From: a virus
Strand: one strand, 5' to 3'
Length of the DNA stretch: 64,000 nucleotides
Virus record (IMG/VR): IMGVR_UViG_3300027763_000032
Span: 1-64,000 of that record
In this document: in pieces, positions 12,101 to 32,800 of the stretch
Layout: each line of letters opens with the position of its first letter
Position numbering within the stretch: the first letter of the stretch is position 1
Position numbers and translations under genes: made by a program
Notes under the pieces: generated by a model
Seen by the model: the letters and a program-made list of their open reading frames with translations, nothing else
Told to the model about the DNA's origin: nothing
The model's database searches: none

Positions 12101-15100
12101 AAGTTATGCCCCAACATTGGTAGATCCAACAGTTGCAATAGATCCAGCATTAGGTCTCATACAAACAAAATTAGACAATGCTAAAGATCGTATTGCTGAT
12201 AACGTAGTTGCGTTTACTAGCAAATATAAACCAAATGGCAAGAAGATTGTTGTCCAAGTTGCGGCCGGTAACTATGTTGAAGACAATCCAGTTATCATTC
12301 CAGACAATACAAGCGTACTAGGCGCAAGTCTTCGTGCCTGTGACATTCGTCCGTTAAATGCTAACCAAGACATGTTCCGTTTACGTAACGGTGCATACTT
12401 TGGTGAGTTTACTTTCCGAGATGCAGTTGATGCGAGTGGCGTGCCAACATTCACTTTTGACTACGCTACTTCGTTTGATGATGCTACTGACATTTACACT
12501 AGTCGTCTTGGTTATACTAATATGCCTATTAGTAAACCTATTATTACTGTATCTCCATATATTCAAAACGTTTCCATCTTAAGTTTCTTAGGTGGTAACG
12601 GCGCAAAGGTTGACGGTAACCTAGTTGAAACTCCTAACATTCCGTTGATTAGAGAAACTGCTGAATTCCCATTAAGTGGTCCAGCACCTGAACAAGGTAA
12701 GTCATTTGTTGCTAACGCATTTACCACATTGAGCTTTGGCGGTACTGGCTGGCGTATTATTAACGATGCCTATGCTCAGATTGTGTCATGCTTCCAGATT
12801 TTCATGTTGAACGGTTCGTATGCTCAGTCAGGCGGATATCTATCTGTTACTAACTCTGCTACTAACTTTGGTATCTATGCGCTTCGTGCATCTGGTTACA
12901 GCCCAAATGCATTTGCCTTTGACAAAGGTTATATTGCATCAACTGGAACTAGCAACAGTAAACAGACTCTTACTACTCTAGGATTTGGTCGTGCGCCAAC
13001 ACAAGATTATGTTTTAAGATTTAGAAGCCCCGACTATAAGGTTGCCTATGACCTATTGTTAGCCAGCAAACTTGCAATACAGAACGCAACTATAACTTGG
13101 ATTAATTTAACATATCCAAGTTTAACATATAACAATGCAACTTGTTTTAGAGATGTTGGCCTGATCATTGATGCTGTAGCATATGATACATTCACAGGCG
13201 GTAATAGCAAGAGTGTAGAAGCCGCTACAAGTTACTATAAAGGCTCTACATCTAGTCAAATAGTTATAACTGGACAACTAACTGAAACCATTGCGGCAAT
13301 TAATTATGCTAGAAGTCTAGCGTTAACTGCTGTTTCTAATAGCGGACTAGGCACATATGTTGGCAGTAAGTTTGATATTATTACCAACGGCCTTGCAGAT
13401 CCGGCAGGAGTTCCTGTATCAGTTGGCTACGGTAATATTGGTGATATTACCAACAACTATAAACCAGCCGCAGTTAATGTATCATTTGATGCGGCAGTTA
13501 ATATAAATCCTGCTCTCGATACTATTACTGTTAATGCACACGGATTTACAAATGGTCAAGCAATTGTTTATCACGCAAATAACAATCCAGAAATTCCAGG
13601 ATTAAACAACGAACAAACTTACTATGTCAGTTATGTTGACCTTGATACCATTCGATTGACATTTGACGAAGGCGGAACTGTTCCTGTAGACATTAGAGCC
13701 ACAGGTGTTGGTACACATTTCTTCTTTAAAAATATTCAAGAGTTCTTTGTTGATGAAATACTTGAAAGTCATAACACCTATCAAGAACTAACTCTACAAG
13801 CTGGCTCATATAACTTTGTGCCAGGTAGTGAAATTACTGGCGTAACTGGCACTTCTAGTAACAATGCATTTGTGTATAGTTATGATCCAGTTAGCTATAA
13901 ACTAGTTGTTAGTCTAAACAAAGTTACTGTTGGTGCAAGTATTATTCGAAATGCCTTTGCGGCCAACAGTACTATTAATTCAGATAACGGTGCACCTGCT
14001 ACAACAAATATTGTAGTAAGTGATGTACTTGCTATCAATACATTATACTCTGCTAGATTTAGCGTACAGGGCACAACTGGAAACGGTCTACTAACTAACC
14101 TAGGTAATCTTCCAAATAAACAAATTTGGCTACATCGTCCAAGTATTGTTAACAGTTCTGGACACACTTGGGAATATGCTGGATCGGGGGTTGACTACAA
14201 TGCCCTACCACAAAACGGTGGACAAAGTATTTTCAAATATGAACAGTACAGTGATTTGCCAGGTCGAGTTTACTCTTCAGGTACTAACGAACTAGGTGAC
14301 TTTAAAGTTGGTGACTTCATTAAGGCTGAAAACAAAACTGGTAATGTTAGCTTTACCAACAAGGTATCAGTTGCACAGTTAGATGCACTACGTCTAGCGG
14401 TGGGTAATATTGTTATTGACTTTATCAGTGATGACGTTGACCTAGGTGATAATGAACCGGGTGGCGCAAGTAACAGTCGTCTAACAACACAGTTGGCTAT
14501 TCGTACATTCTTATCAAACAGACTAGGCGGATTCATTGACAAAGCTGTGAGTACTAACGCTGTTCCGGGTGCGGTTATTCAGCTGAACAGCTCTGGACAA
14601 ATTAATCCAGACTTGTTGCCTGCGGTACGTGCTTTCAACTCAGCTAAGAGCAAAGGCTTCTATAGTAGATTAAGTCTAGTTGAAGAAGTACCTGCTTACG
14701 ATTTCTTAAACGGTGACATTGTAACTGAAGAATATGCTACAGTACAGTTAACATTAAGTGCTCCTATCACTGCGCCTGTTGGCTCACTAGTTGTTCAAGC
14801 AACTACAGGTGCCAGTGGTTACCTAATTGGAGATGTGCTTGCTGAAACAGTTATCACAGTTGCCAGTGTAGGCGCATCTTTTAGTGCGGCATTTAATACA
14901 GTAGATAATTTAACAGTAGCTGGTGATGCTACACCTTCTACAGGCAACGGAGTCGTAAAGCCAAACTTGGTAGGTACCGTGGCTAGTAACGTGCCTGCAA
15001 ACTTTGTATTGTCAAATGCCAACGAAGGGCAATATTTAAATCTACGTGCAGATCAAAGTTACAGCTTTACCAACGGCACAATTGTTACCAGTGCTAATGA

Positions 15101-18100
15101 TAACGTACAAGGTAATGTTACATCTACAAGATTTGGAGTATTAGATACCGTAGACAACGGAAGCATTACTCCAGGAACATTGTATACTCCACTATCCGGA
15201 TCAGTTACATACTCTTATGTTACACTAACTAATATTTCAGGAACAGGTACTGGTGGTATTGCAGATATTACTGTAACCAATGGTGCTGTTAGCAGTGTTG
15301 ACTTACGTAGAGGCGGTACCGGTTATGCTGTAGGAGATGTTCTATCAGCGGCTAGCGGTACCATTGGCGGCACAGGTAGTGGCTTTAGAATCCCAGTAAC
15401 TGGTATCGAACAGCGTGTATACCTTAGCTTGCTAGGTGGCGAAAGATTTACTGCTACACTAGCAAGTCCAAACTTTATTGCTGATAATAATGCTCCAGTA
15501 AAAGCAATAACTGCTACCGGTACATCTACAAAAACATTTAGTGCTAATTCAATTGGTGGTAATGTAAACTATGTTACTAGTCGAATCACTATTACCGGCC
15601 ACACATATGCAGACGGCGATCCAGTAAAATATGTCAGCAGTCCAAACACTGCTATTGATCCGTTGGTCAATGCCGAAGTCTATTATGTAAATGTCTATGA
15701 TGCCAATACCATTGAACTGTACGAAGACTATGCATTGATACAAAAAGTTGTATTTACAAGTTCAAGTACTGGCAATCATACTCTAACAATCTTTAATGCC
15801 AACGTAATTGATAACTCATTCTATTATGCGGCACATGGATTAACTACAGGTGATCCATTAAGACTAACAGGATCAAGTTTACCATTAGTCGGCGGCTCTG
15901 CTATTGTTACTGGCACATTCTATTTTGCCGGTTCAATAACTGCAAACTCATTTACTATCCATGCATCAAGAAGCGAAGCATTGGCCAGTATTAACGGTCT
16001 TGTAACTAACAAGATTGTGTTCACTACTACTGGTAGCGGCACACTGACATTCACTAAACAAAACGTACAGGTATTTGGAACTGTAAACACTAGTTCTACA
16101 AACAAAGACAACTGGAGCTCATTGAGTGCTACCACTATTGATGCTTCAAGTATTACCGGTGGCGTTATCTCAACAAGTCGACTAGCTGGTACCGGTAGTG
16201 CTAATGATACTACATTCCTACGTGGTGATAGTTCATGGCGCACAGCAGTTCAAAGTATTAGAGAAGTCAGCACACCGTTGACATTTACTGGTTCTTATAA
16301 TACCGTCGGCGGTAACAATTATTACTATGGCGATGTACAATTAGACATTGAAAAAGTTGATAGCAACGGCGGTGACGACAACTACACTAATCTAGGTGTG
16401 TCTAAATTCCGTAAGACACAATTTGCTGTCGGAACTAGCGTTGCGGCAGGCGAAGTTTATATTAAAGACGGCGTAGTTGATGCAGGTACCTTAGACAGTT
16501 TAGACAGCGCATACTTCTTAAATCCTGCTAACCTAACTAGTAACGTGCCTGTTACACGTGGCGGAACTAATATTAGTTCGTATGCTGTGGGTGATTTATT
16601 GTATGCTAGTGCTACTAGTATTTTAAGTAAGGTAGCGATTGGGCCAGCTAATACCATATTAACCAGTGACGGCACTAAGCCTGCTTGGAGATCTAGTCTA
16701 ACAGTTGATGGTGCATTGACTATTGGCAGTCCGGCAGAACAAGCTCTTATTGTTACAACAGGCGGAGCTAACATTGGCGGCAACTTGTGGGTTGGTAAAA
16801 ATGGGTACATAACAGGCGATTTGAATGTTACTGGTAATGTAAACATTAAAGGTTCAATACTAACTATTAATTCAACTACAGTTAACGTTGACGATAAGAA
16901 TATTGAATTAGGCAGTGTATCTACACTATCAGATTTATCGGGTACTATTAGTGGAAACATAGTAGCAGGATTAATAGACACGTCCGGATTAACTAGCGGA
17001 ATGAGGTTGGTTAAAACTACTGGTACTGGTGCATTTGGCGGTACTACTGTCATTAATACTGTTGTTAACCCAACAACAATTACTGTAACTCCAACTACTG
17101 CAAACACAGATGGTACTATCACGTTTGATGTATTAACCGCAACTAATGCCACAGCAGACGGTGGCGGCATTACACTAAAAGGTACAACTGACAAAACATT
17201 CAATTGGGTCAACTCAACTAGCGCATGGACTTCGAGTGAGCACATGAATCTTGCCGCTGGTAAAGAATATCGAATTGGTGGAGTAACTGTACTAACAAGC
17301 ACAAGAGTATTAGGCAAGCTGCCTGGCGGAACTACTGCTGGCGATCTAGTTGACATTGATAGTACACAAACATTAACTAATAAAACTCTAACTAATCCTG
17401 TAATTAGTGGAACAACTACTAGCATCACTAACATCGGCACACTAGCAATAAGAGATGCCAGTGCGGCATATGATGTTACGCTTGCGGCCAACAGTTCAAC
17501 TGCCTTAACAGCAGGTCGTACATTGACTCTTGACATGGTCAATGCGGCAAGAACTATTAAGCTAGGTGGCAATTTAACTCTAGCCAATAACTTTACAACT
17601 GTTGGCAATGCTATAACATTAACAGTAAGTGGTGCAACTAACGTTACAGTACCAACTACAGGTACATTGGCTACCTTAGACGGTACAGAAACATTTACCA
17701 ATAAGACATTAACAAGCCCAGTGATTGGTACTATTGTTAATACAGGTACATTGACACTGCCAACAACTACAGATACTATTGTTGGTCGTGCTACTACTGA
17801 CACATTGTCCAACAAGACATTGACATTACCTAAGATTAATGACGCAAGTTCAGATCATACATATAATTTTGCGGTCAGCGAACTACCGGCTAATAGAACT
17901 ATAACATTGCCATTATTAACAGGTAATGATACATTTGCATTTACTGGACAAGCGCAGACATTTACTAATAAAACATTTACTGACGCTAGCACCTACTTCC
18001 AAGACGAAGCTGATAATCTTAAAAAATTACAGTTTCAACTAAGCGGAATTACTAGCGGAGTTACTCGTACATTAACTATTAATGATGTTAGCGGAACTAT

Positions 18101-19877
18101 TGTAACAACAGGCGACACTGGTTCTATTACCAGCACCATGATTGCCAATGACACTATTGTTAATGCTGATATTAACTCGGCTGCGGCCATTGCCTATAGT
18201 AAACTAAGTCTAGGCAATAGTATTGTCAATGCTGATGTAAGTAGCACAGCGGCAATTGCCTATAGCAAATTAAGTTTAGGTAATAGTATTGTCAATGCTG
18301 ATGTAAGTACTAGTGCGGCAATTGCCTATAGCAAATTAAATCTATCAGCAAGTATTGTCAATGCTGATATTAGCGCAACTGCCGCAATTGCAACAAGTAA
18401 AATTGCAGGCTTGGCAGCTTCAGCTACCACTGATACAACTAATGCTAGTAACATTACCAGTGGGTCGTTACCAAATGCACGCCTAACTAACAGTAGTATT
18501 ACTATTGGTACAACTCCAATTAGCTTAGGTAGTACAAGTACTACACTAGCAGGATTGACTAGTGTAACGGCAACAACATTTACTGGTTCGTTAAGTGGTA
18601 ATGCCAGTACAGTAACCAACGGTGTTGTTACTAGCGGCAGTTATAGTGATCCAAGTTGGTTGACCATCAGCAAGAGCAAAGTTGGGTTAGGCAACGTTGA
18701 CAACACCGCTGACGCTAATAAATCAGTTAACTATGCTACCAGCGCAGGTAGTGCGGGTAATGCAACCACAGCCGGCGGTCTAGCAGTAGCTACTGGCCGC
18801 AATAATAGTGCTAATCAAATTGTTCGTACAGATGGTAGTGGCTATTTACAAACAGGTTACATCAACTCTAGCAACGGTGACGAGGGCAACAACAGTAGTC
18901 CAAGTAGAGTCTGGGGTACAAATGGTAGTGATAGTTATCTACGTACATACTTAACTAGTGCGCTAAGTGTTAGCTATGCGGCATCTGCTGGTGCAGTAGC
19001 ATGGAGTGGCATAAGTGGCAAGCCGACCACAGTTAGTGGTTTTGGAATCACTGATGCAATTACTACAAGCAATATTGGTTCGCAATCAGTTAACTATGCT
19101 ACTAGTGCAGGTAGTGTAAGCGGTACGGTAGCTAACGCAACCAACGCTACCAACGCAACGTATGCAACCTATATTAATACAGATTCATATAATATGAAAC
19201 TGCATTGGAATGGACAAAGCGGGCAACCAACTTGGCTATGGGGTTCAAATAACGGAACAGATGCATATGTTTGGAACCCAAGTAACTTTAGTGTTAACTA
19301 TGCTACTACCGCAGGTAGTGCTCCGGCTAGTGACGTTTATAATTGGGCTAAACAACCTAATCCGCCTGCAAGTACATCTACCTTAGTAGGTGCTAGCGGA
19401 TATACTGCCGTATCAGGAACTGTTACCCTAGCAGGTGGCGGCGACACTAGTGTTACACAAAGTGGAAATACTATTACTATTAGCTCATTATCAACTGCGG
19501 TATACGCGGCTGACTTAGCTGAGAAATATCAGGCCGATGCAGACTACGAACCGGGTACTGTATTAATGTTTGGCGGTGAGTTTGAAGTTACAGTAGCAGA
19601 CGATGACACTATTCGCGTAGCTGGTATTGTATCCACAAACCCAGCTTACTTGATGAACAAGGGCCTAGATGGTGTTAATACTGTAGCGATTGCCCTACAA
19701 GGTCGTGTACCATGTAAGGTTAAGGGCAAGATCCGCAAGGGCGATATGCTAGTTGCCGCTGAAGGAGGGTATGCCCGTGCTACTGATAACCCACGATTGG
19801 GTGCTATTATTGGTAAAGCTCTAGAAAACTTTGACGGTGAAGAGGGTGTTATCGAAGTAGTTGTAGGAAGAATTTAA
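9144..19877 (+). CDS. giant tail-fibre-like virion protein (3577 aa): beta-helix core, helical repeats, C-terminal intramolecular chaperone
   Basis: GDDNNDG...TLKRA and VAAGNYVEDNPVIIP pectin-lyase-like elements; T/S/G/N-rich fibre repeats; C-terminal ADLAEKY...ALQGRVPCKV...IIGKAL chaperone-type domain. Confidence 0.85.
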   Translation: MSVISADAFRRIVLVDNLGTTQPVLRADDRNDVLTIRAGTGISIQKDEGDVNAGFTIYNTGEPGPTSIDDILEIPTIGERPQPAGVSWKPMELGKLTVQDYLPDNLTKTTKMFYTGHGVQAPTNSSLSLTVAGTGTVIVDGTSALRLPVGDIASRPGTTIGTVQAGQIRFNSEIPRFEGYDGRGWNTLGGVSSIDGGTTIAPDPTLPILNFNANGYLVATMSSLNTKIFSPGLVIPTGTTAERPPAIVGQIRFNTQNTQFEGYNGSGWSSLGGVRDIDGNTYIVPELGPGTNENTLYFVTNANLALTLDGSRLSLQNGRSLMFREGIASGNQTATIAPPTNITSSYTLKLPTSLGSAGSVLGVDGSGQLEFVNADSSAGSKINVSELFGDDNNDGFSRPVRTLKRALQIASGYVYSPTFIYEEEVCRRDAGLIIDSLGWDLVTDSNWRSLKSGLTYFNATALPVITTQRPQTIQAVSFLKRKVLDLVTSEPTVTSTLTSLSNEIIDILTNGVGAANAVSMPAPAGTPSGVENAKNLLLANTSFLVAETIAWINYQAANNIAPFDKSISYDESKCRRDTGLILDAVGYDLALGTNYNAVTIGLAYQRYSYTTLPSQKTVTLSAIQFAKTNTLALAGVSADGTATTRAGAAFNEIIDIITNGVVQTATAADALIFPTPTGASANKTNAKDQLIANKDFLKAEVIAWLNLNYPSVGFDPALCSRDMGYIIDALCYDVLYGGDSASIQVAQTYFTGSGAQVLPLFQRAATVAAFNRLSEIAQQVILKDEVVPTAGNTVSQDIINPAGTTTESNIVFTLISYITSSITGNTTAGLPSPTYPSVTWSDAGLQTAKSAIASARSTIINDTIININASNPFTYDSPKCARDTAFIVNSVAYDLIYGGNSQSRDAGLKYYSNVTGLTLIGSQNAQTAAAIERLRAVSIQVAQNISIVKTSGNAQNQVSGSAGSSGAAAIISARLSEIISVVSAGTSYAPTLVDPTVAIDPALGLIQTKLDNAKDRIADNVVAFTSKYKPNGKKIVVQVAAGNYVEDNPVIIPDNTSVLGASLRACDIRPLNANQDMFRLRNGAYFGEFTFRDAVDASGVPTFTFDYATSFDDATDIYTSRLGYTNMPISKPIITVSPYIQNVSILSFLGGNGAKVDGNLVETPNIPLIRETAEFPLSGPAPEQGKSFVANAFTTLSFGGTGWRIINDAYAQIVSCFQIFMLNGSYAQSGGYLSVTNSATNFGIYALRASGYSPNAFAFDKGYIASTGTSNSKQTLTTLGFGRAPTQDYVLRFRSPDYKVAYDLLLASKLAIQNATITWINLTYPSLTYNNATCFRDVGLIIDAVAYDTFTGGNSKSVEAATSYYKGSTSSQIVITGQLTETIAAINYARSLALTAVSNSGLGTYVGSKFDIITNGLADPAGVPVSVGYGNIGDITNNYKPAAVNVSFDAAVNINPALDTITVNAHGFTNGQAIVYHANNNPEIPGLNNEQTYYVSYVDLDTIRLTFDEGGTVPVDIRATGVGTHFFFKNIQEFFVDEILESHNTYQELTLQAGSYNFVPGSEITGVTGTSSNNAFVYSYDPVSYKLVVSLNKVTVGASIIRNAFAANSTINSDNGAPATTNIVVSDVLAINTLYSARFSVQGTTGNGLLTNLGNLPNKQIWLHRPSIVNSSGHTWEYAGSGVDYNALPQNGGQSIFKYEQYSDLPGRVYSSGTNELGDFKVGDFIKAENKTGNVSFTNKVSVAQLDALRLAVGNIVIDFISDDVDLGDNEPGGASNSRLTTQLAIRTFLSNRLGGFIDKAVSTNAVPGAVIQLNSSGQINPDLLPAVRAFNSAKSKGFYSRLSLVEEVPAYDFLNGDIVTEEYATVQLTLSAPITAPVGSLVVQATTGASGYLIGDVLAETVITVASVGASFSAAFNTVDNLTVAGDATPSTGNGVVKPNLVGTVASNVPANFVLSNANEGQYLNLRADQSYSFTNGTIVTSANDNVQGNVTSTRFGVLDTVDNGSITPGTLYTPLSGSVTYSYVTLTNISGTGTGGIADITVTNGAVSSVDLRRGGTGYAVGDVLSAASGTIGGTGSGFRIPVTGIEQRVYLSLLGGERFTATLASPNFIADNNAPVKAITATGTSTKTFSANSIGGNVNYVTSRITITGHTYADGDPVKYVSSPNTAIDPLVNAEVYYVNVYDANTIELYEDYALIQKVVFTSSSTGNHTLTIFNANVIDNSFYYAAHGLTTGDPLRLTGSSLPLVGGSAIVTGTFYFAGSITANSFTIHASRSEALASINGLVTNKIVFTTTGSGTLTFTKQNVQVFGTVNTSSTNKDNWSSLSATTIDASSITGGVISTSRLAGTGSANDTTFLRGDSSWRTAVQSIREVSTPLTFTGSYNTVGGNNYYYGDVQLDIEKVDSNGGDDNYTNLGVSKFRKTQFAVGTSVAAGEVYIKDGVVDAGTLDSLDSAYFLNPANLTSNVPVTRGGTNISSYAVGDLLYASATSILSKVAIGPANTILTSDGTKPAWRSSLTVDGALTIGSPAEQALIVTTGGANIGGNLWVGKNGYITGDLNVTGNVNIKGSILTINSTTVNVDDKNIELGSVSTLSDLSGTISGNIVAGLIDTSGLTSGMRLVKTTGTGAFGGTTVINTVVNPTTITVTPTTANTDGTITFDVLTATNATADGGGITLKGTTDKTFNWVNSTSAWTSSEHMNLAAGKEYRIGGVTVLTSTRVLGKLPGGTTAGDLVDIDSTQTLTNKTLTNPVISGTTTSITNIGTLAIRDASAAYDVTLAANSSTALTAGRTLTLDMVNAARTIKLGGNLTLANNFTTVGNAITLTVSGATNVTVPTTGTLATLDGTETFTNKTLTSPVIGTIVNTGTLTLPTTTDTIVGRATTDTLSNKTLTLPKINDASSDHTYNFAVSELPANRTITLPLLTGNDTFAFTGQAQTFTNKTFTDASTYFQDEADNLKKLQFQLSGITSGVTRTLTINDVSGTIVTTGDTGSITSTMIANDTIVNADINSAAAIAYSKLSLGNSIVNADVSSTAAIAYSKLSLGNSIVNADVSTSAAIAYSKLNLSASIVNADISATAAIATSKIAGLAASATTDTTNASNITSGSLPNARLTNSSITIGTTPISLGSTSTTLAGLTSVTATTFTGSLSGNASTVTNGVVTSGSYSDPSWLTISKSKVGLGNVDNTADANKSVNYATSAGSAGNATTAGGLAVATGRNNSANQIVRTDGSGYLQTGYINSSNGDEGNNSSPSRVWGTNGSDSYLRTYLTSALSVSYAASAGAVAWSGISGKPTTVSGFGITDAITTSNIGSQSVNYATSAGSVSGTVANATNATNATYATYINTDSYNMKLHWNGQSGQPTWLWGSNNGTDAYVWNPSNFSVNYATTAGSAPASDVYNWAKQPNPPASTSTLVGASGYTAVSGTVTLAGGGDTSVTQSGNTITISSLSTAVYAADLAEKYQADADYEPGTVLMFGGEFEVTVADDDTIRVAGIVSTNPAYLMNKGLDGVNTVAIALQGRVPCKVKGKIRKGDMLVAAEGGYARATDNPRLGAIIGKALENFDGEEGVIEVVVGRI
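10404..13420 (+). repeat. five ~150-aa helical repeats with C-x-R-D core (fibre 1)
   Basis: Units start at 10404, 10848, 11283, 11766 and 13128: VCRRDAGLIID, KCRRDTGLILD, LCSRDMGYIID, KCARDTAFIVN, TCFRDVGLIID. Confidence 0.85.
18156..18407 (+). repeat. tandem 66-nt / 22-aa repeat x4 (IVNADxSxxAAIAYSKLxLxxS)
   Basis: Units at 18156, 18222, 18288 and 18354. Confidence 0.9.
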
Positions 19878-19905: not shown

Positions 19906-21429
19906 ATGAGCCAATTGCTTTCCATTGTTGATGATAAAATTGTTATTGAAAAACTAAGTCTAAAATATCTAGACGGCAACACTACGCACGTCGGAACATT
20001 AGATATCAAAGGTGGCTTAAAAGTTGTTCAGAGCGTATCATTCGACACTGATCTTAGAGTACGAGGTACTTTAGACGTCGACACTATTAATGTTAAAAAT
20101 CTTAATAGAGGTGATGCAAGTCAACTAGATGCGTTTACCTTTTCAGCAGAAGCAGAGTCAGGATTAGACGGCCGAGGCGTAGTTTGGGGCATTGGCGATA
20201 CTTCATATCAATTGATATTTAAAGCACAGCCCCGTAGAATTTATTCAAGTGAATCTTTTGACATTGGTAAAAATTCCAAATATCAAATTGACGGTGTTGA
20301 CGTATTGCTACAAGATAGATTAGGCAATTCAATTAAACACTCAAAATTAACTGAAGTTGGTACACTCACCGGACTAGAAGTAGACGGCAATACTAACCTA
20401 GGCAATACAATAATTGTAAACAGCTACTTGAATCGTGTTGGCATTAATACTGAAATCCCAAATGCGGCATTTAGCGTTATGGAAAACGGTATTGAGATCG
20501 TTGTTGGTACAGAAGACAACCGTGCTGTTATTGGAACTTGGGGGAATCAAGCATTAGATATTATTACAGATAACACTTCTAGAATTAACATCCAAGGTAA
20601 TACAGTAACATTTGGCAGCGAGGCCAGTAAAAACGCACAGGTTAAAATTAACGGTACACTAACAGTAGATAGTATTGTCAGCGATGTTCGAGTTGAAAGA
20701 ACTGCACCTATTGAGTTTTTAGAAGATAATAATAGTGGAGTATACGGTAAAGGATTAATTTGGAGATCTAAAGGCAACAGTTCTAGACAGTTCTTTTTAA
20801 TGCCAAACCCAGATAGATTCTATAGCACCGAGTCTATTGACCTAGCTAGTGGAAATTATTTTAGCATTGCTAAGAATCTAGTTATTAGTGAAACAGCATT
20901 AGGTGCCGGTGTTAAAAATAGTAATTTAGAAACACTAGGCACATTATCAAATCTAACAGTTGGCGGTGATGTTAATCTAAATGACGCATTAAAAGTTGTT
21001 AACTCAGAAGCCGTTGCCAACAGATTATTTACTGTAGCGTCTGGAGATGTTAGTCTTAGATTAACTGCTGACAGCATCAATGCTAGCGACAGCATTAGAG
21101 TGTTTGTAAAAGAAACACAAGAACTAGCTATTACTGATAACGGTATTACTATTGGTAATAAAAACAATACTGCTAGAACTATTAACGCATATGGTAAACT
21201 AGCAGTAAACATTACTCATCCAGATCCAGACGCGGCATTTAGTGTCGACGGACCGGTGGTAATGAATGGCAAAAAGTTTGTAACCACAGACGCTATGCCA
21301 ACTACCGGCGAATGGAACGTTGGAGATATTGCTTGGAACTCTACACCACAGACATCTAGCTATATTGGTTGGGTATGTGTTACTAGCGGAAACCCGGGCA
21401 TTTGGAAACCGTTTGGGCAGATTGCCTAA
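19906..21429 (+). CDS. tail-fibre-like / beta-rich virion protein
   Basis: 507 aa with internal duplication (SNLETLGTLSNLTVGG / SKLTEVGTLTGLEVDG); C-terminal PTTGEWNVGDIAWN...GWVC...G.WKPFG motif; late promoter. Confidence 0.75.
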   Translation: MSQLLSIVDDKIVIEKLSLKYLDGNTTHVGTLDIKGGLKVVQSVSFDTDLRVRGTLDVDTINVKNLNRGDASQLDAFTFSAEAESGLDGRGVVWGIGDTSYQLIFKAQPRRIYSSESFDIGKNSKYQIDGVDVLLQDRLGNSIKHSKLTEVGTLTGLEVDGNTNLGNTIIVNSYLNRVGINTEIPNAAFSVMENGIEIVVGTEDNRAVIGTWGNQALDIITDNTSRINIQGNTVTFGSEASKNAQVKINGTLTVDSIVSDVRVERTAPIEFLEDNNSGVYGKGLIWRSKGNSSRQFFLMPNPDRFYSTESIDLASGNYFSIAKNLVISETALGAGVKNSNLETLGTLSNLTVGGDVNLNDALKVVNSEAVANRLFTVASGDVSLRLTADSINASDSIRVFVKETQELAITDNGITIGNKNNTARTINAYGKLAVNITHPDPDAAFSVDGPVVMNGKKFVTTDAMPTTGEWNVGDIAWNSTPQTSSYIGWVCVTSGNPGIWKPFGQIA

Positions 21430-21438
21430 CCATAATCA

Positions 21439-21466
21439 TTGACTTTGTCTAGTAAGAGTGTATAAT
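21439..21466 (+). promoter_or_regulatory. sigma70-type promoter for queD with 10-bp inverted repeat
   Basis: TTGACT-16 nt-TATAAT; TGTCTAGTAA(21446-21455)/TTACTAGACA(21466-21475). Confidence 0.75.
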
Positions 21467-21482
21467 TACTAGACACACACAA

Positions 21483-21527
21483 AGAGGACTCTATGGCATC
21501 ATCCCTCTATAAACACTCTGCAGTCAT
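21483..21527 (+). ncRNA. candidate preQ1-I-like riboswitch aptamer (variant)
   Basis: AGAGG...CCCUCU stem followed by AUAAACAC, as in preQ1-I; lies in the 5' UTR of queD; loop longer than canonical. Confidence 0.5.
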
Positions 21528-21559
21528 CAAACTTGCTACCTTAATAAAGGAGACTAGAG

Positions 21560-22075
21560 ATGGCAAAATTTTACTCAACAAAAACTTACGGCAACGATAG
21601 GGGTCTATCATGCTGTTTTAGACAGTGGAGAGCGACCCATAGTCACTGCTCAACACTTCACGGATACTCAATCGGTATTAAACTCGTATTCGAATGCGAT
21701 ACGCTAGATGACAAAAACTGGTGTATGGACTTTGGCGGTCTCAAGGAATTCAAAGCATGGGCAGACTACATGTTTGATCATACGCTAGTAATTGCGTTTG
21801 ATGACCCTATGATGCCTTTTTTCAAACAAATGGCCGCACAAATCAATATGGGCTCTGAAGATCCTCGTAGCGATATTCCACACAAGCGAGGTGCTATTTG
21901 CGATCTTAGAGTAGTAGATGGTGTAGGTTGTGAAATGTTTGCCAAAATGGCATACGATAAAATGGCTGAACTTTTGGCTAGTGGCGATATGCGCTATCCA
22001 ATTAATCCAACAGTTAGGATCAAATCAGTTGAAGTATTTGAACATGGTGCTAACTCAGCTACATACGAAGGCTAA
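21560..22075 (+). CDS. queD: 6-carboxy-5,6,7,8-tetrahydropterin synthase (QueD/PTPS family)
   Basis: HCSTLHGY, MDFGGLK, FDHT, VEVFEHGAN motifs; AAGGAG RBS. Confidence 0.92.
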   Translation: MAKFYSTKTYGNDRGLSCCFRQWRATHSHCSTLHGYSIGIKLVFECDTLDDKNWCMDFGGLKEFKAWADYMFDHTLVIAFDDPMMPFFKQMAAQINMGSEDPRSDIPHKRGAICDLRVVDGVGCEMFAKMAYDKMAELLASGDMRYPINPTVRIKSVEVFEHGANSATYEG

Positions 22076-22087
22076 CAACTTTTGGAC

Positions 22088-22116
22088 TTGACTTAAATAG
22101 ACATACATGCTATAAT
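22088..22116 (+). promoter_or_regulatory. sigma70-type promoter (extended -10) for uvsE
   Basis: TTGACT-17 nt-TATAAT preceded by TGC. Confidence 0.8.
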
Positions 22117-22135
22117 GCTGTATGTCTATTTTTTT
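22095..22135 (+). terminator. intrinsic terminator after queD, overlapping the uvsE promoter
   Basis: 13-bp arms AAATAGACATACA/TGTATGTCTATTT plus T-tract. Confidence 0.75.
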
Positions 22136-22146
22136 GATTGGTAGCT

Positions 22147-23175
22147 ATGATTAAGCGTATTGGATTTGCTTGTAAATGGATTGACGGGCCTAGCCAGATT
22201 AATGGCATTAAACAGACAGATACTGCCAAACAGTACAATACAAGTACCACAACAGTGGCATGGCTTAAAAGGCAAGACCGTGCAGTAGCAGAACAAAAGC
22301 TATGGGACCTAATGGTAGGTAACTTAGACGCTGTGCAAAAGCTCGTTGATCGAGTAGGAGAGTTAGATGAAAATCGTAGGATGGTGCGCCTTAGCAGTGA
22401 TATTCTCCCTGTTTATACCGAGCCCACTTTCAGTTATTTCTGGCGCAGGCCCGATGTTATTGATTATCTTGACCGGAACTTTATCCTTATCGGGGATAGT
22501 GCTCGTGCAAGCAATACCCGTCTTTCTTTTCATCCTGGCCAGTTTACTGTTCTTGCTAGCATTAATGAAGGTATTGTCCAAAGATCAATAGAGGAGTTTG
22601 AATATCATGCCGATATGGTCAGATACATGGGCTACGGTAAGGCCTTCCAGGATTTTAAAATCAACGTACACATCTCGGGTAAACAAGGTCCCCAAGGTAT
22701 TCGATCTGCCTACAAACGCCTTACCTCCGAAGCCCGGAATTGTATTACAATTGAAAACGAAGAAAACGCATGGGGGTTAAATGATTGTCTTGAGCTTGGT
22801 GATATCTTGCCTATTGTTATGGATATTCACCACCATTGGATCAGGGAAGGTGCATACATTACACCAGAAGATGATCGAGTACAACGTGTTATTGATAGTT
22901 GGCGGGGTGTTCGCCCTACTATGCATTACTCAGTTAGTCGTGAAGACATCTTAGTTGGTCACGATCCTTTTACGATGCCGGATCATGCTCTGCTACTAGA
23001 ACAAGGATACAAGAAACAAAAGATGCGGGCTCATTCAAACTTTTATTGGAATATGCCAGTCAATCAGTGGGCATTAAGTTTCTTAGAGCACTTTGACATC
23101 ATGTGCGAATCTAAAGCGAAAAACCTAGCAAGTGCTAGGCTATTCGAACAAGCTAAAGAACTAGATCTTATTTAG
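22147..23175 (+). CDS. uvsE: UV DNA damage endonuclease (UvsE/UVDE)
   Basis: RIGFAC, RLSSD, HPGQF, IHISG, ENEE, DIHHH, HYS, MCESKAK motifs; start taken at ATG 22147. Confidence 0.93.
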   Translation: MIKRIGFACKWIDGPSQINGIKQTDTAKQYNTSTTTVAWLKRQDRAVAEQKLWDLMVGNLDAVQKLVDRVGELDENRRMVRLSSDILPVYTEPTFSYFWRRPDVIDYLDRNFILIGDSARASNTRLSFHPGQFTVLASINEGIVQRSIEEFEYHADMVRYMGYGKAFQDFKINVHISGKQGPQGIRSAYKRLTSEARNCITIENEENAWGLNDCLELGDILPIVMDIHHHWIREGAYITPEDDRVQRVIDSWRGVRPTMHYSVSREDILVGHDPFTMPDHALLLEQGYKKQKMRAHSNFYWNMPVNQWALSFLEHFDIMCESKAKNLASARLFEQAKELDLI

Positions 23176-23777: not shown

Positions 23778-23806
23778 TCATATACAAAGACTTATTGGAG
23801 CATTCA

Positions 23807-26800
23807 ATGGCACGTAAAATAGTAGACATCGGCGTAGAAGGTAATGACGGTACTGGTGACAGTATTCGCGAAGGTTTTAGAAAAACCAACGAAAATTTTA
23901 AAGAAATCTATGCTGTATTTGGACAAGAAGGTACCTTATCATTCTTAAGTTTAGGTGACGTAGAAGCTGGACAGCGTGAAAATTATTCTGCTATAGCAAA
24001 TCAGTTACCGATTGTTAACAATCAAGGTAACGGAATAAAGTTCAAACCTCTAGTGGGCGCCGCTGGTTTGACTATTACATACCCAGATGATCCGGCTGAT
24101 CCCAACTATAACAAAATTGTTCTAACACAACAACGTGCAGTAGCAGAATTAGGCTCAGCTGATGCGGCTGGTAAATTTGGAAATTCCGTTGATGCCCAGG
24201 GATTTGTCTTTGGAAATATTGCAGATCCAACACAACAGAATGTGTTAAATTGGAATACTGCATTTGAACGCAGTGGACAGACTGTTATTGGGGCTGAAAA
24301 GTTTCCAGTTACATTAGGATTTGCAGACAACAGATACATCAATAAAGGTACAATACCTGGCGAAGTTGCGGATGCAATGGTAGGTTATCTTGCTGTTCCG
24401 GCAGGTGCGAGTGGAGATCAAGTACCACAGGCCGCGGAAACTGTATTGAAAGCTGGTGCAACAATGACCGGCAAACTGTTCCTAAACGATCATCCAGGTG
24501 ATCTAGCAGGTGCAGGTAACCCTATTGGCCTTGACGACAAACAAGCCGCTACCAAATACTACGTAGACACAACTGCATACTCAAGTAAAGTTAACTTGTA
24601 TGTTAGTACTAGTGGTGACGATTCACAACGTAAAACTCCCGTGGGTAAAGAAGGCCGAGCATTTGCATATGCTTATGCCAGCGTAGTTGCCGCGTGTTTA
24701 AAAGCCGAACAACTTATTGATGAGAGTCCATGGGAAACAGGTCCGTATCGTCAATTGATTGCATACGGCGGTGCCAAATATTATTCAGAAATTACGCCAG
24801 GTGGTATTATCATTGGTGGCGGTTTAAACGGAACTACACGTATTAAATTTACTAACGATAATGGTAGTCCAGTTGATCAAGGTATTGCAAACAATAGAGA
24901 TATTATTCCAGGTAAGCTAGTAGTTGGCCGAGAAAGTGGCGCAAGAGGTTTCATTGTAAAATATGGAACTATCGACGATACTGACTACGTTGACCTACGA
25001 GATGTAACTGGATCTTTTGCTGTTGGCGAAAACCTGTTCTTTGACCAAGCTGTTAAGCGTTTAGAAATTTCAATCTTCATCGAGTCAGGTAACTACTATG
25101 AAGACTATCCTATCCGTATTCCACGTAACTGTTCTATTCTAGGTGATGAATTCCGTCGTACAGTTATTCGTCCTGCTGATCGAGTAAGTAGAAGCCCGTG
25201 GGCAGGTACTTGGTTCTACCGTGATTTAGAATTCGATAACCTAAAGATTGCAGAAACAGAATGGGGTTATCATTATCTATCAGACCCAACTAACAAGGCA
25301 TCTACTCCAAAGAACAACAAAGACATAGATGTGTTCTTATGTAATGATGCTACTATTATTCGTCAGATCAGCTGTCAAGGTCACGGCGGATTTATGATGG
25401 TACTTGATCCTAACGGTCAAATTTTAACCAAGTCGCCCTACTGTCAACAGTCGGGCTGTTTCTCTGGATCTCTAAACAAACAAGCGTTCCGAGGCGGTCA
25501 ATATGTTGACGGACAAGCAGGAAGCATGCCTGTAACTTCAGTCAGTACTAACGTAGATAAAACTGAAATCACAGTCACTGATGCATTCCGTATACCACAA
25601 ACTCCTACAGCGTTCTTTGTTAAAGGTAAACGCTACAAGATTGACACCTTTACCGATAACGGTTTAGGATACCGCGGTGCTAGAGAACTACTGTTATTAA
25701 ACAAAGAATTTATTGTTGCTGAAACTATTGCTTACATTGACGATGTTATTACTCCAACATTTACATATGACTCTATTAAATTCAGCCAAGCTGTAGGTTC
25801 TATTATCAATGCAGTTGCATGGGATGTAGTATTTGACAGTAATGTACAGTCTATTCTAGTAGCTCAAGAATATTATGTAAGAAGTAATTATACAACTTTT
25901 GCTTCAGAGAAAACACAAACATTAGTTGCACTTGAATTTGTAAAAGATTCTCTAGTAGATCTGTTGTCTTCAAATGCAACAGCGGCAGCTCGTGCTAGTG
26001 CGAAGATGGACATAATATTACAAATTCTTACCAACGGCGTCAACGACCGTGCTATCTTAGATGCAAGCTCATGGAGCTATAATGGCACTACCATTACTGT
26101 GACTAAATCAAGCGGTCACGGTTTAGGTGCTGGCTGGTCTGTTAAGATCGTTGATGCTACTGCAACAACTAATGCACCTAACGGTACATTCAATGTTGCT
26201 TCTATTGTTAATGCTAATACCTTTACATATACAGTTACTAACGCACCAACTGGAACAGCCGGTGGCAACATTAGATTCACTAGCTCTCCAGTGCCAATTA
26301 GATCAATTCCAAATCCGCCAGTTGATCCACAGGCATTGCCTGCTACTACCCTAGGAATTCAAAATAGTCTTGCATTATTAATTGCCAACAGAGAGTTAAT
26401 CAAAGCAGAATATATTGCATATATTCAAACTTACTATTCTGATTTCCTATTCGGAACTATTGGCGTTACTGGCTATCTTAGAGATGCTGACAGAATTGTC
26501 AATGCGGTAATATATGATTCTATCTACGGCGGTACTAGTCAAACTGTACTAGTGTCTAAAAACTTCTTTGACCTTGAAGGCAAGTCAAAAATATCTACTG
26601 AAGTTACACAAATATATAATGCGTTAGAATGGATCAGAGATGTTGCCAAACAAGTAGTTACCAATACTCAAATTACAGGTCTGTTACAGGTATCAGTTCC
26701 CCAGGTAAGAGGAACTGCTGGAACTTTAGAAATTTCTACTATTATAGAAGATAATTTTGATTCTGTAGTCACTGCTGTTAGATTTGGAGAAGATACTCTT

Positions 26801-29800
26801 CCTGCTGTGTCATATCCAAGAATTGAAAACGTTGCTACAAGTTTACAGTCAGCAAAAAGTTTATTAGATATAAATGCAGGCAATATCCGTTCAAATACTA
26901 TTTCGTTTATCAATAACAAATATCTATATGACGTGGCGGCTGCACAACGAGACATTAGATTCCTAGTAGATGATCTAGCACATGACATTGTCTACACTGG
27001 TGATCTAAAAATGGTAGAGCACGGACTAGGCTACTTTGTCGGTGATGCAAAACTTGTTAGCGATCCTGAGCGTCCAAGAACACTGGCTATTCTTGATTAC
27101 ATACAAGATCTAGCATTAGCCATTGTTGACAACGTTTCTATTCCAAATCCACAATTAACTAAAGTTGGTAGTTTAATTGTTGGTCAAACTTATAAAATTA
27201 ATAATGCTGGATCGACTATCTGGACAGCATTAGGTTCTGCAGACAATTTACATAATACTGTCTTTACTGCAACTGCCACTGGAACCGTAAACGCTACACA
27301 AGTTGTTCTGGGTCGTGCATATACTATTGTATCTAGAGGAAGTCCAACTAATTTAACTAACTATATCAGCATGGGTTCTTCAAGCAATGCTATAGGAACT
27401 TCGTTTATTGCCACTGCCGTAGGTACCGGTACTGGCGTTCTTACACAGGGAACAGGAGATGCTAGACTTGCTAGTGGTAGTGATTTCTATAGAAGACAAT
27501 TTGGTATAAGTCAAACAATTCAATTAATATCAAGCGGAGCAGGTCCCGCTACTATTGTACCAAGTTTAACATGGGTCAATACTAACCTAGTAAATGCTTT
27601 CCAAAAATTACAAGACGACAAAGCAATAATTCAAGCGGCAGTCATTACTTGGATCAATGGCAACATAGTATCAAACGTTACTAATCCAAATAGCATATGG
27701 TATGGCTTTAGTTATAACAGTGGCACTTGTAGTCGAGACGTGGGATTCGTTATTGATGCTGTTGGTTACGACATGATGTTTAACAGCAACTTCCGTAGTA
27801 GTAAAGCTGGTATGGCCTACTACAGAGGAGTGGTCAGCGCCGCGCTAGTACGAAGTAATCAACTACCGCAGACTGTAGCTTCGTTCGTTTACTTAAAGAA
27901 TTATCTATTATCAACTGTTACGGCAGCGGCCTTTGGCGAGACAGCCAATACTAGAGTTGGCGATAAAATGGATGTTGTCATAGACATCGTTACAAATGGA
28001 TTAGGTGCAGTTCCTGCATTTACATTACCAAACCCAACAGGATTTAGTATTGACTATAGCAATGCTAGAAGATTAATCAGCGACAATAAGGCATTTATTA
28101 TTGATGAGATCACGCAATGGATTGCCGCACAGATTGTTGGAAATATTACACCGTTCACTACACAGTTCCAATACGATTCAGTAAAGTGTGCTCGTGATGT
28201 TGGATATATTATTGATGCTATCCTATATGATTTAACCTATGGTGGAAATTTAGAAACTATTGTTGCGGCCAATGCATACTTTGTAGGATCCAATACCACA
28301 TTAGGTGCAGACCAAAAAGATAAAACCATTGCCGCATATGCTCGATTAAAAGAAGTTATTGGTAAAGTTGCACAGGCTGTTCAAGTATTAGATAAAAATA
28401 CTGCCATTGCACAGACTACCGCAGTAAGTGGCGGCGGATTAACTACTTCGGTAGCATTTGCTCAAGCTCGTGTTCAAGATATTATTAAACAAATTAATAT
28501 CACAGCAGTTGACAGTAAACCTCAATTAGAGTCGTTAATTAGCACTACTAGAGAAATGGTTGCTAATACTAAACCAGAAGGATATGTATCTGCTAAAAAC
28601 TTATTAGTAGCCAACCGTGCATTTATTCAAGCTGAAGTGTACAATTATCTAACAAATACTTACACATTCACTATTACTCAAACAACAAATAATCAACTGG
28701 TGACAGCTAGTACTGCTAAGATGAGAGTCGGTATGCCGGTTAAGTTTCTTGGTACTGATCCGTTTGAACAAACAATTTTATCAGCATCAACTCCGTTGTT
28801 AGTAGACGGCAAATATGTAGTTACTTTTGAATTTGTAAGACAACGAGTTAGACCAGATTCAACAAAAGAATATGAGATTCAAGGAAATGCCAACGGCTTA
28901 TACAATTTAATTGTACCGGTTGCTATTGTACCTGATCAATCAACTACTGATACTTCAACTACTAGTATCACCGTAGTGTATCCGTTTAATCCCGGAGTGT
29001 TTGACTATGCTAATCAAACAACTATTCGCGTGTCAGGCGGAACATTTGGCGGTGTAAATCGTGATGCCAAGTATTATGTTAAACAAATTGTCAGCGGCAC
29101 TAATTTTACAATCTCAGAAACTATTAGTGGCGGAACTCCTGGATCGGTATTTTCATTAGACAGTGATACCGGAACAATGTATTGCTCGTTTGCATTTGAT
29201 GAAGCTACTTGCAGAAGAGATACTGGCTTCTTAGTTAGTAACATTTCAACTGACATATTATACGGCGGTCGTTATAATACTATTAAGTCTGGTAAGAGAT
29301 ACTTGGTTGCAAGTTCTGTATTAGTTGTAACAGAACAAAGTGTTGAGTGTCGAGCCGGTATTACTTATATTGATACTCTAGCACAGCGTATTATTAACAA
29401 TCAAGCACCATTAGTAAATTATCAATCATTAAACAATGTTAACCCTAATGATGTTGTTGCTCAAGTTATAGACACTGACTTTGCAGGTGGATCTGCGGCA
29501 GGCCCTACTATCACCGGATTAGTTCAACTAGTAAACAACATTATTCTAAACGGAAAAATATGGGCAGAAAGTTTTATTAATATTCCGGATGCAGTAGTAT
29601 ATCCAAAATATGTTTTACAATTAAATCAAGATACCCCGTATAGTACAGATGCATCTGGACCACTCCCAGACGAACTAGTTCTGCAGGCAGCTGGTAATAC
29701 AAGTATGTTGTCCAATGACTGGACACAGTTAAACGACTTGGCCTACGGTCTAGTTGCTACAAACAACGGATTGATTGAAACTGTTTCTGTGTTTACTTAC

Positions 29801-32800
29801 TATTGCTGGACTGCTTACTACTCACGCAACGGCGGACAAATTCGTTCAGTAGCAGGATCCAATGCACACGGAGAGTATGCTCTTGTTGCCGAAGGTAGTG
29901 ATCCTTTTGAAGTTCCAGACTCTTCTAACCTAGCAAATGACATGCCACAGGTGGCAAGAATTTACAAATCTGGACCTTTTGCCGCAGAGATGGCAAAAAC
30001 AAAAACAACTGTGTATATTGACACATACAGTTACTTGCCATATAACGTAAGTGAAATTGAAATCAATCACGGATATACTGTTGTTGATGGGGCTATCACT
30101 GATATCGGTATTACTAGATACGAAGTTGCAGGCATTGTTGATGCATCAGGAACATATTTCTCAACTAATCAACCAGTTGCCGCAGCCGCAACATTTAATA
30201 GCGGAACTGGAAAATATAGAGTAGAATTTAGTTTCCCTGCAAAAACTTACATTCCAGATGTTGGAAGATATTATACTATTACTGGAAACTCAAATTCTGC
30301 ATATAACAATAACTTTACAGGTTGGTTATGTGTAGCATCTACTACCAATACTATCACATTAGAATTTACTAGTGTTAATCCCGGAACATTTGGTACTGTT
30401 ACAGCTACTACTCTTAAACTAAAGAGCGGAACTATTCTTAGATTGAATTTAAACACTAGTGGTACTAACAATACTAGTTCTAGCGGGTTACAAGACGCAT
30501 TAGCAGACAACCAACTAGTTGTTATTAGACCAAATCAAAACTTTAAATTCTATAATGTTGATAACATCAGTCCAACACGACCAAGTACTGCATTAACGTT
30601 TAGAGGTGATCCATTAGATAATGCCAATGCTCCGGTATATCGTGTATTGGCATTTAATACTAAAGACCCATTAAGCAATCCAATGACGTTGACTTTCAAT
30701 ACTCTTGAAAGAGCATTTAGTGCAGGTAATGTAATCACTGTTGGTTCAACACTGCCAATTCGTCCTGGAATGAAGATTTCAATAGTAAGCGGAACAGGCA
30801 GTGTATCTGAATCAACTACTGTGGTTGCTGTTACTAGCGATACTACATTTACAGTTAGTCCTAGTCCAGCTCTTGCATTGTCAAATGCAACTATACAAGC
30901 AGTATCGCCAACACAAAATGATATCATCTTAACATTTGACTCTGGTTACAATTATATTGGACTAGTTATCGACCCTGATCATAATACATTGACCGAAGCA
31001 CAAGCAGGTATAGATGGCGGAAGTACTACTAGAACACTAGGATCTAGACAAGGCGATCAATTCTTATCTATTAGAAAAATTAATAGCGCAGACGAATTAC
31101 AACGTATACTAACCGGACAAATGTGTTTTGCATGGAACGGTCGTGTTCATAGAATTTCTAACTATCTTGTTAGGACCATTAGTAGCACCGAAGGTTACGG
31201 CATTGTACAACTTAACGAAGTCACTCTTGATGGTAGTAGATCATATCAAGACATTAGCGGATACGGTGGCACTGGTATTACCGCCCCAACAAGACCTGGT
31301 GAAGGTTACAACGTTTCTGCTGCCTTGTATAATATTGATGATCAGTTAATAACATATTCAATTAGTGGATTAGAAACTGCACCTAATGCGGCTAGATTCA
31401 CCGGTGTTATTTCTGCTACTACATTAACAGTTAGCAGTATTACGGCTGGTAGCATGTTGGTTGGGTCTACCATTACAGGTATTACTGGCACTAGTGTAAC
31501 TACTGATACTAGAATAACTGCACAACTAACTTGTTCGGCGGCGGCTATATATAGTTCAACTGCAACAGGTACTAGTGGATCATTTACTATAACATTGTCT
31601 GCAGGATCTGCTAATATTTTAGCTGGACAATTTGTTTCAGGTAATGCGGCAACTATTGCTGGACTACCAACCAATACATATGTAACCAATGTTAGTAGTA
31701 CTACTATTACATTAAGCAACGCATTAACAAGCAATATTTCTACAACTGTTTATTTCTTTACAGCAGGATTAGCAGGCACATATAGTGTAAACAACTCGCA
31801 ATCAGTTACAAGTCAATTGATGGGTGTTCATTATACTGTATATGGTAACAGCAATGCTAGTTACAATATTGCTGGGCCAATACTAAGTTCAACTTATTCG
31901 GCATTAACCATTGCGGCTGCAAAAGCAACTGTTGTTGGCTCTGTGTCAGGATTATTCTTAACTGTTAATTATCTAAGTGGTAATACAATACAACTTGGTC
32001 AAAATATTAGTGGAACTGGTTTAAGTGCAGGCACATATGTTGTAGCACAAAGTTCAGGTACACCCGGCGGTGTCGGAGTATATCAATTAAACACTGTTGC
32101 TAGTATTCTAACTCCCACATTTACCGCGGCTATTAATAACGGTAGTGGTAGTGCAGGCACTATATTAAATGTTAGCACGGTAGCTAGCGGTACAATTTTA
32201 GTTGGCGCAGATATTCAGAAAACTGGTGGGACTGGTGTAACTACTGGGACTACTATTACAGGACAGTTAACTGGTGTAACTGTAGCTACAACTACTGCTA
32301 CAGGTACTAGTGGTACTAATATTTTATCTGTAGCCTCAGTAGTAGGTATTATAGTGGGACAACTAGTAACTGGTACTGGCGTTCCTAGCGACACGTATGT
32401 TAAAGAAATTAACATGACCGGAATACAACTAGTAGGCAGTAACGGTGCAACTAGAGTATTAACACAGGCAGCAACCGGAGGTAGCTATATATTTGCCACT
32501 GCTGGGGGCCAAGGTACATACTCAGTAGATGTAAGCCAATTAGTTACATCGGGAGAGATGAAAGCATCGTTTGTAGCAATTCCAGGAATATTTGGACCTG
32601 CTAGTGCTACACGTATTTTCCCAACAGAAAAACTATATAACCCTACGTTGGTGCAAGATAATACAATTACTATCCGTACTGGTTTAAGTGCAGGCGAACC
32701 TGCAGACATTATTATTAATATTAGTACTTGCCGAGTTACCGGACATGACTTCAGTGATATCGGTACTGGTGGTTATAACCAAACTAACTATCCAAACAAA

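Follow-up and report, generated by a model that had tools for sequence, protein, structure and literature searches.

The mRNA of a queD-like gene in a freshwater jumbo phage is best explained as carrying at its 5' end a cis-acting H-type pseudoknot aptamer with a core of 45 nt (21483-21527). We propose that this pseudoknot probably binds a small molecule and acts as a translational ON switch, in which the aptamer helix P2 competes with a hairpin, P3, at the ribosome-binding site (RBS). The chances seem to us roughly balanced that the motif represents either a riboswitch class of its own, new and confined to phages, or a fourth branch of the preQ1-I fold with reversed polarity; in both cases a heterocycle with the pairing face of guanine would turn on translation of QueD-type proteins. 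A conserved aptamer is combined here with variable expression platforms that share its bases, as is generally the case in riboswitches. An earlier note on this DNA had described P1, a pseudoknot between loop and tail and a hairpin over the RBS, and all three were recovered at the coordinates listed below.

The window analysed comprises 64,000 nt and is part of a 121-kb IMG/VR record (IMGVR_UViG_3300027763_000032) from a lake phage with about 40% G+C. As the record is rated 33% complete, it represents a fragment of a jumbo phage genome. The protein encoded at 21560-22075 matches Pfam PTPS with 55 bits and NCBIfam QueD with 35.7 bits, the latter lying under the family cutoff. A homologue of this protein is QueD-like according to PHROG, and the only hit of a PDB sequence search was a weak match to the uncharacterised PTPS-like protein 3JYG. 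The features of the region are as follows.

21439-21466, + strand: sigma-70-type promoter with TTGACT (21439-44), a 16-nt spacer and TATAAT (21461-66), agreeing with the consensus at 11 of 12 positions
21483-21487, + strand: 5' strand of P1, AGAGG, pairing with 21504-08
21488-21492, + strand: loop L1, ACUCU, from alignment column counts
21493-21501, + strand: 5' strand of P2, AUGGCAUCA, pairing with 21519-27; outer pairs covary, inner pairs from targeted scans
21502-21503, + strand: L2, U21502 and C21503; the C is invariant, the U corresponds to 1-3 nt in relatives
21504-21508, + strand: 3' strand of P1, CCUCU, from the alignment
21509-21518, + strand: L3, AUAAACACUC, family consensus WUAYAAAYUC
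21519-21527, + strand: 3' strand of P2, UGCAGUCAU, from covariation; 21523-27 are also used by the RBS-sequestering hairpin
21523-21564, + strand: platform hairpin P3, GUCAUC (21523-28) with GAUGGC (21559-64) and an inner CCUU/AAGG over the Shine-Dalgarno sequence; minimum free energy (MFE) structure, -11.2 kcal/mol
21547-21552, + strand: Shine-Dalgarno (SD) sequence AAGGAG, read directly in the sequence
21560-22075, + strand: queD-like gene, PTPS fold, 171 aa (Pfam PTPS, NCBIfam QueD, PHROG)
22095-22131, + strand: perfect inverted repeat of 13 bp with a T run after it, the likely queD terminator

The -10 box of the queD promoter sits within an inverted repeat (21436-55/21466-85), and promoters of the form TTGAC-N17-TATAAT that end 7-16 nt 5' of P1 are common among the relatives. 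In the close relative L006, this first inverted repeat is maintained by paired changes (GTCTAATAA/TTATTAGAC). The repeat at 22095-22131 also encloses the -10 box of the following promoter (22088-22116), such that in both near-consensus promoters (21436-21485 and 22088-22131) the -10 box lies within an inverted repeat, and the stretch 22088-22131 that follows queD resembles a terminator and promoter in one, placed ahead of the next gene. That next gene (22138-23175), directly 3' of queD, encodes a UvdE-type UV-damage endonuclease (Pfam UvdE, 122 bits), and the gene directly 5' of queD (19906-21429) resembles tail-fibre or virion-structural genes. The queD region is flanked by giant ORFs (9144-19877 and 23795-37936; 3577 and 4713 aa) in which Pfam recognised no informative domain; a phycobilisome match was weak and probably spurious.

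In one lake metatranscriptome, an error-free contig spans exactly 21484-22070, which corresponds to the aptamer plus queD. Another contig from the same metatranscriptome stops at 21420, and a DNA contig spans 20900-21522. The data are assembled contigs of a single study, in which 5' ends and expression levels are unreadable and uncovered stretches carry no meaning, and the RNA contigs give a weak hint of a monocistronic queD mRNA that starts at the aptamer. Taken by itself, the leader in the window has a fold z-score of -0.98 and folds no better than shuffled sequences. The case for the structure therefore rests on comparison with other phages.

Conservation and covariation of the pseudoknot

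Used as a query against IMG/VR, the QueD protein identified 356 relatives, and 80 loci with 77-97% identity were retained. The leader motif is present at 74 of these queD loci, and in the remaining six queD lies directly 3' of another ORF. In a first alignment of 45 distinct aptamers, produced with MAFFT, P1 was paired in 100% of cells with both-sided changes in 4/5 pairs, and the pseudoknot helix P2 was paired in 82% of cells with both-sided changes in 6/6 pairs. The covariation score of this alignment was 0.553, compared with 0.172 for shuffled alignments (0/500) and 0.05-0.13 when partners were slid. A covariance model, R1, was built on the 45-aptamer alignment and then used to align 101 distinct copies. 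P1 was 99.8% paired in these sequences, with both-sided changes in 4/5 pairs and the pair variants AU/UA, GC/CG/UA and CG/AU/UA, and P2 showed both-sided changes at every pair. The score of the larger comparison was 0.446 versus 0.154 for shuffles (reached by 0/500) and 0.06-0.12 for slid partners. The covariation of P1 derives from 101 distinct sequences and that of P2 from 49, each with shuffle and slide controls; overall, the two helices covary over approximately 137 distinct aptamers from IMG/VR phage contigs. The riboswitch-like pseudoknot proposed in the earlier note is thus conserved and covarying, and the comparison of queD leaders that it had suggested was positive for both helices. 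Its non-canonical pairing of AUGGC (21493-97) with GUCAU (21523-27) is the real P2, as judged by covariation in the relatives. On the other hand, the identity of P1 and the A-rich tail to those of B. subtilis, which had been taken as unlikely to arise by chance, is not kept in the relatives. For P1 it proved coincidental, as the majority of the relatives have GCGG/CCGC and AGAGG/CCUCU of the window is a minority form.

Among the 101 sequences, the only one that reads UCCGC instead of UCUGC is also the only one in which a G replaces the A of the conserved UCAUC. This paired change suggested that P2 extends inward around a U.C mismatch. The inner pairs were predicted beforehand and then checked by targeted pattern scans of IMG/VR. 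The scan for UCCGC yielded 54 stretches with about 29 distinct true motifs, 23 of which were aligned, and three chance matches; all true motifs read UCGUC or UCGAC and therefore carry the compensating G. The scan for UCUAC yielded 12 stretches, and 5/5 distinct true motifs read UUAUC, which contains the compensating U. In the extended alignment the two inner pairs occur as A-U (25) or G-C (23) and as C-G (43) or U-A (5), with one unpaired cell each. They correspond to C21500-G21520 and A21501-U21519 in the window and extend P2 inward by two, so that P2 consists of nine positions including the conserved pyrimidine-pyrimidine U.C mismatch, a position that also occurs as U.U, U-A or a deletion.

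The family can be described by a P1 of 5 bp, an L1 of N-C-U plus 0-7 bases, a P2 of nine positions, an L2 of U (1-3) followed by C, and an L3 with the sequence WUAYAAAYUC. The second and third bases of L1 (C21489 and U21490) are invariant and the remainder of this loop differs in length. By family column counts, three A and the terminal U-C of the A-rich, 10-nt L3 are invariant as well. The G-C pair atop P1 was found in 101/101 sequences, and the C directly 5' of the P1 3' strand (21503) in 100/100; a pattern scan of IMG/VR for a base other than C at this site gave 0 matches. In total, 11 unpaired positions are invariant in the 100 sequences. By analogy, C21503 is a putative ligand-pairing base. 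Part of the loop conservation could stem from common descent, all sequences being from related uncultured phages. Which bases form the middle P1 pair (C-G or A-U/U-A) correlates with two L3 positions (A2 columns 5/30 with 36 and 38), and this could reflect minor-groove triples or shared ancestry, given the few lineages.

Relation to preQ1 riboswitches

The gathering scan of the window against Rfam 15 returned no family, including preQ1-I, -II and -III, and at E≤10 the matches in a 271-nt slice and eight relatives were chance snoRNA and PYLIS hits alone. The earlier note had named a search with the preQ1 model RF00522 (gathering score 39 bits) as a check. This model gave no match at E≤10 in the 271-nt slice, the 121-kb record or the eight relatives, nor did RF01054 (preQ1-II) or RF02680 (preQ1-III) match the window or the eight relatives. 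Literature searches revealed neither a preQ1-IV class nor a riboswitch described for queD, preQ0 or pterins.

The preQ1-I riboswitches, types I-III of which include those of B. subtilis queC, T. tengcongensis, C. antarcticum and E. coli (RF00522; PMC11625349), are H-type pseudoknots that hold the ligand between coaxial P1 and P2, with a conserved G-C pair as the floor of the pocket and an A-rich L3 along the minor groove of P1 (PMC11625349). A specificity C lies directly 5' of the P1 3' strand, in the context UC in type I and AC in types II and III, and UU is found atop P1 in types I and III (PMC11625349). The short P2 of 3-4 pairs buries SD bases, and the gene is off on binding (PMC11625349). 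The phage motif shares the H-type topology with a 5-bp P1 and a P2 formed from loop and 3' tail, the invariant G-C atop P1 that is the pocket floor in preQ1-I, the unpaired C 5' of the P1 3' strand with a U before it as in type I, the A-rich sequence of L3 after P1, and the position upstream of a gene of the 7-deazaguanine pathway.

These features, together with a conserved C in the 3' tail and the association with QueD, would be expected of a divergent but true preQ1-I subtype, a "type IV" that binds preQ1 or preQ0. Such an assignment bears on family membership and on the ligand but leaves the direction of the switch aside, and we regard it as possible but rather doubtful. In addition to the lack of a covariance-model match, L1 reads N-C-U plus 0-7 variable bases instead of UU, P2 has nine positions and a conserved U.C mismatch instead of 3-4 bp, and L3 comprises 10 nt and ends in an invariant U-C where preQ1-I has an adenine beside the ligand. 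Furthermore, QueC, a QueF route and DpdA are not recognisable in these phages, and the motif occurs almost solely in uncultured phages, unlike preQ1-I. P2 of the phage motif is also devoid of SD bases and its 3' strand is complementary to the RBS, from which ON rather than OFF control is predicted. Judged from sequence, the motif appears to work like a preQ1-I-type knot but is not filed as a preQ1-I member. The preQ1-I-like variant of the earlier note therefore stands with respect to architecture and falls with respect to membership in RF00522.

PreQ1-II (RF01054) and preQ1-III (RF02680) are HLout pseudoknots of 80-100 nt. The phage motif shares with them the pathway theme and, with class III, an RBS helix distant from the pocket, but it is not of the 80-100 nt HLout type and has no Rfam match.

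Expression platform and switch direction

The CCUU/AAGG pairing over the SD (21547-52) recognised in the earlier note is present, and in the MFE structure it forms the inner part of the larger GUCAUC/GAUGGC hairpin P3, which also covers the AUG. P3 shares nucleotides 21523-27 with the 3' strand of P2, and the two pairings are mutually exclusive. At least three platform designs occur behind the one aptamer.

CAUUG...CAAUG, occluding the AUG
GUCAUC...GAUGGC, occluding the AUG; the type present in the window
CCUAUG...CAUAGG, occluding the SD; with covarying variants such as CCUAUA/UAUAGG and CUCUAUU/AAUAGAG

The MFE structure of the platform uses P2 3' bases in 97/99 leaders, pairing them with the start-codon region in 57 and with the SD region in 40. 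When the P2 3' bases were blocked, the probability that the RBS is unpaired increased in 90/99 leaders, from a mean of 0.41 to 0.54-0.60, and in the window from 0.24 to 0.57. These computed shifts in accessibility are moderate, and the folding models lack pseudoknot geometry and coaxial stacking. P3 becomes about 4.5 kcal/mol less stable on blocking, and formation of the P2 duplex contributes about -5.4 kcal/mol with no pseudoknot penalty counted, indicating that the P2 and P3 states are poised and nearly iso-energetic. No SD bases are part of P2, and the SD lies 20-35 nt downstream. Since the 3' strand of P2 is the anti-RBS strand, stabilisation of the aptamer should open the RBS, and as modelled the leader layout is likely that of a translational ON switch. 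A control in which strands were swapped between leaders was uninformative because the P2 3' strands are alike across leaders.

In the mechanism that we propose, the P2 3' strand of the ligand-free RNA would be paired with the region of the start codon or the SD as part of P3, the more stable hairpin, and translation would be blocked. A small molecule at the P1/P2 junction, with a guanine-like face pairing with the invariant C, would lock P2, the base of P3 would be lost and the ribosome could load. An ON switch on a biosynthetic gene would be unusual if the ligand were the product of the pathway.

The same aptamer might instead be a feedback OFF switch, in which an end product (preQ0, preQ1 or CDG) would bind and the knot, stacked on the remainder of P3, would block the 30S subunit. 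Every preQ1 class known so far is an OFF switch on genes of the Q pathway (PMC11625349), and product feedback is the usual logic of biosynthetic genes. P2 and the remainder of P3 are moreover contiguous and could stack coaxially, in which case the ribosome might still be impeded by P2 sitting on a shortened P3. We nevertheless consider this improbable. P2 contains no SD base and is separated from the SD by the distance given above, it takes away the bases that close the RBS hairpin in nearly all leaders (97/99), and removal of its 3' bases opens the RBS in most of them (90/99). The feedback repression assumed in the earlier note is at odds with this wiring, in which the P2 3' strand is the anti-RBS strand.

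Translational ON riboswitches that sequester the anti-RBS strand are known, for example the V. vulnificus add adenine riboswitch and guanidine-III. In these as in the phage leaders, folding of the aptamer is in competition with a helix over the SD or the AUG. Fold and ligand are unrelated, and the add and guanidine-III riboswitches control salvage or detoxification genes whereas the phage motif controls a biosynthetic one.

Downstream genes, pathway context and candidate ligands

The motif pattern occurs in at least 120 IMG/VR stretches. In the 121-kb record and five large relatives, model R1 found at most one strong copy per genome; further matches with E values of 0.01-1 were rejected as short fragments. 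Among 185,579 species genomes the pattern matched once, at 5802-5824 of the GTDB MAG contig CAIJZG010000025.1 (L221), at the end of a 5.9-kb contig labelled Bacteroidetes. This contig may have been mis-binned and be of phage origin, or it may point to the host, and the sigma-70-type promoters of the motif-bearing phages argue against a Bacteroidetes host. In GenBank phages, megablast with the leader region gave no match, and blastn with two aptamers gave chance matches alone (E≥1).

QueD/PTPS-like proteins account for 76/80 downstream proteins (about 95%) and form a single BLAST cluster that covers several subfamilies with differing N-termini. The same aptamer also precedes a cupin gene (L135) and, on three contigs (L142, L268 and L300), a family of 233-243 aa that looks like a SAM methyltransferase, Atlas look-alikes being lead-level only. 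On two further contigs (L052 and L060), which carry two motif copies each, a radical SAM gene lies under the same aptamer. In the copy 5' of the radical SAM gene of L052 (1345-1396), P3 hardly overlaps P2 and no clear SD is present. In L052, a gene resembling xanthine/hypoxanthine-guanine phosphoribosyltransferases (776-1324) lies directly 5' of the motif-controlled radical SAM gene, queD and queE, and by analogy with toyocamycin-type pathways it hints at conversion of a base into a nucleotide. On L105 (1-5553), a degenerate motif copy (21.5 bits, UUCGC tail, weakened P2) is located 5' of a methyltransferase-like ORF. The strong copy and a QueD-like gene of this contig are followed by genes for a glycosyltransferase-like protein (weak, below the cut-off), a sugar epimerase/dehydratase and a DegT aminotransferase.

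This diversity bears on the question of whether the pseudoknot is a site for a phage or host protein, acting as repressor or activator, or a constitutive structural determinant of translation or mRNA stability. Protein-bound pseudoknots are known in phage leaders, the leader of T4 gene 32 being an example. Here, however, one aptamer stands before several divergent QueD subfamilies and unrelated enzymes, its expression platforms are interchangeable, and its junction contains an invariant unpaired C as is typical of small-molecule aptamers, making this explanation very unlikely. SAM, which the methyltransferase and radical SAM genes brought up as a ligand, was set aside, as SAM is not used by QueD and there was no match to SAM-II or SAM-V.

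In the 121-kb record, FolE is encoded at 81.2 kb and a QueE-like enzyme at 84.4 kb, both within the stretch 81.2-85.2 kb. Genes for FolE, QueD-like and QueE-like proteins are present in the record and in its five relatives, and each of these six genomes has 5-7 further weak radical-SAM-like matches. Searches with phrog_887, phrog_7068 and Pfam TGT detected no DpdA/TGT in the record or the five relatives, two of which are 91% and 95% complete. The positive control for phrog_7068 was Rhizobium phage RHEph04, whose protein was also matched directly by phrog_887. Candidates for QueC from Pfam and PHROG were rejected, being NAD synthetases or matches at the cut-off that cover about 60 residues. The presence of FolE, QueD and QueE without detected DpdA/TGT or a convincing QueC suggests that the route leads to a 7-deazapurine or a pterin and differs from the DNA-modification pathway known in phages.

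By analogy, any heterocycle with the pairing face of guanine would fit the invariant C, and candidates are 7-deazaguanines and the pterin substrate or product of QueD. Most plausibly, the ligand would be an intermediate of the FolE-QueD-QueE route, either a 7-deazaguanine or a pterin. It could be a pterin such as the substrate of QueD (dihydroneopterin triphosphate, CPH4), and sensing of a pterin would let the phage drain the folate precursor of the host at surplus alone. Alternatively, it could be a 7-deazapurine from a FolE-QueD-QueE route devoid of DpdA and QueC.

The present analysis contributes the two additional inner pairs of P2 and the targeted scans that bear them out, the check that the key C does not vary, and the comparison with the type-I-like UC. 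To our knowledge, few riboswitch classes occur in phages, and we know of none that is phage-specific. The motif occurs in hundreds of natural variants, its core measures 45 nt and its switching design is clear, which makes it directly suited to ligand screens and reporter assays. The identity of the ligand would tell which 7-deazapurine or pterin is made by these freshwater jumbo phages. Should the proposed ON control be correct, the smallest known riboswitch fold would gain its first relative of the ON type, useful for understanding how a fold can be rewired and as a compact part for synthetic biology.
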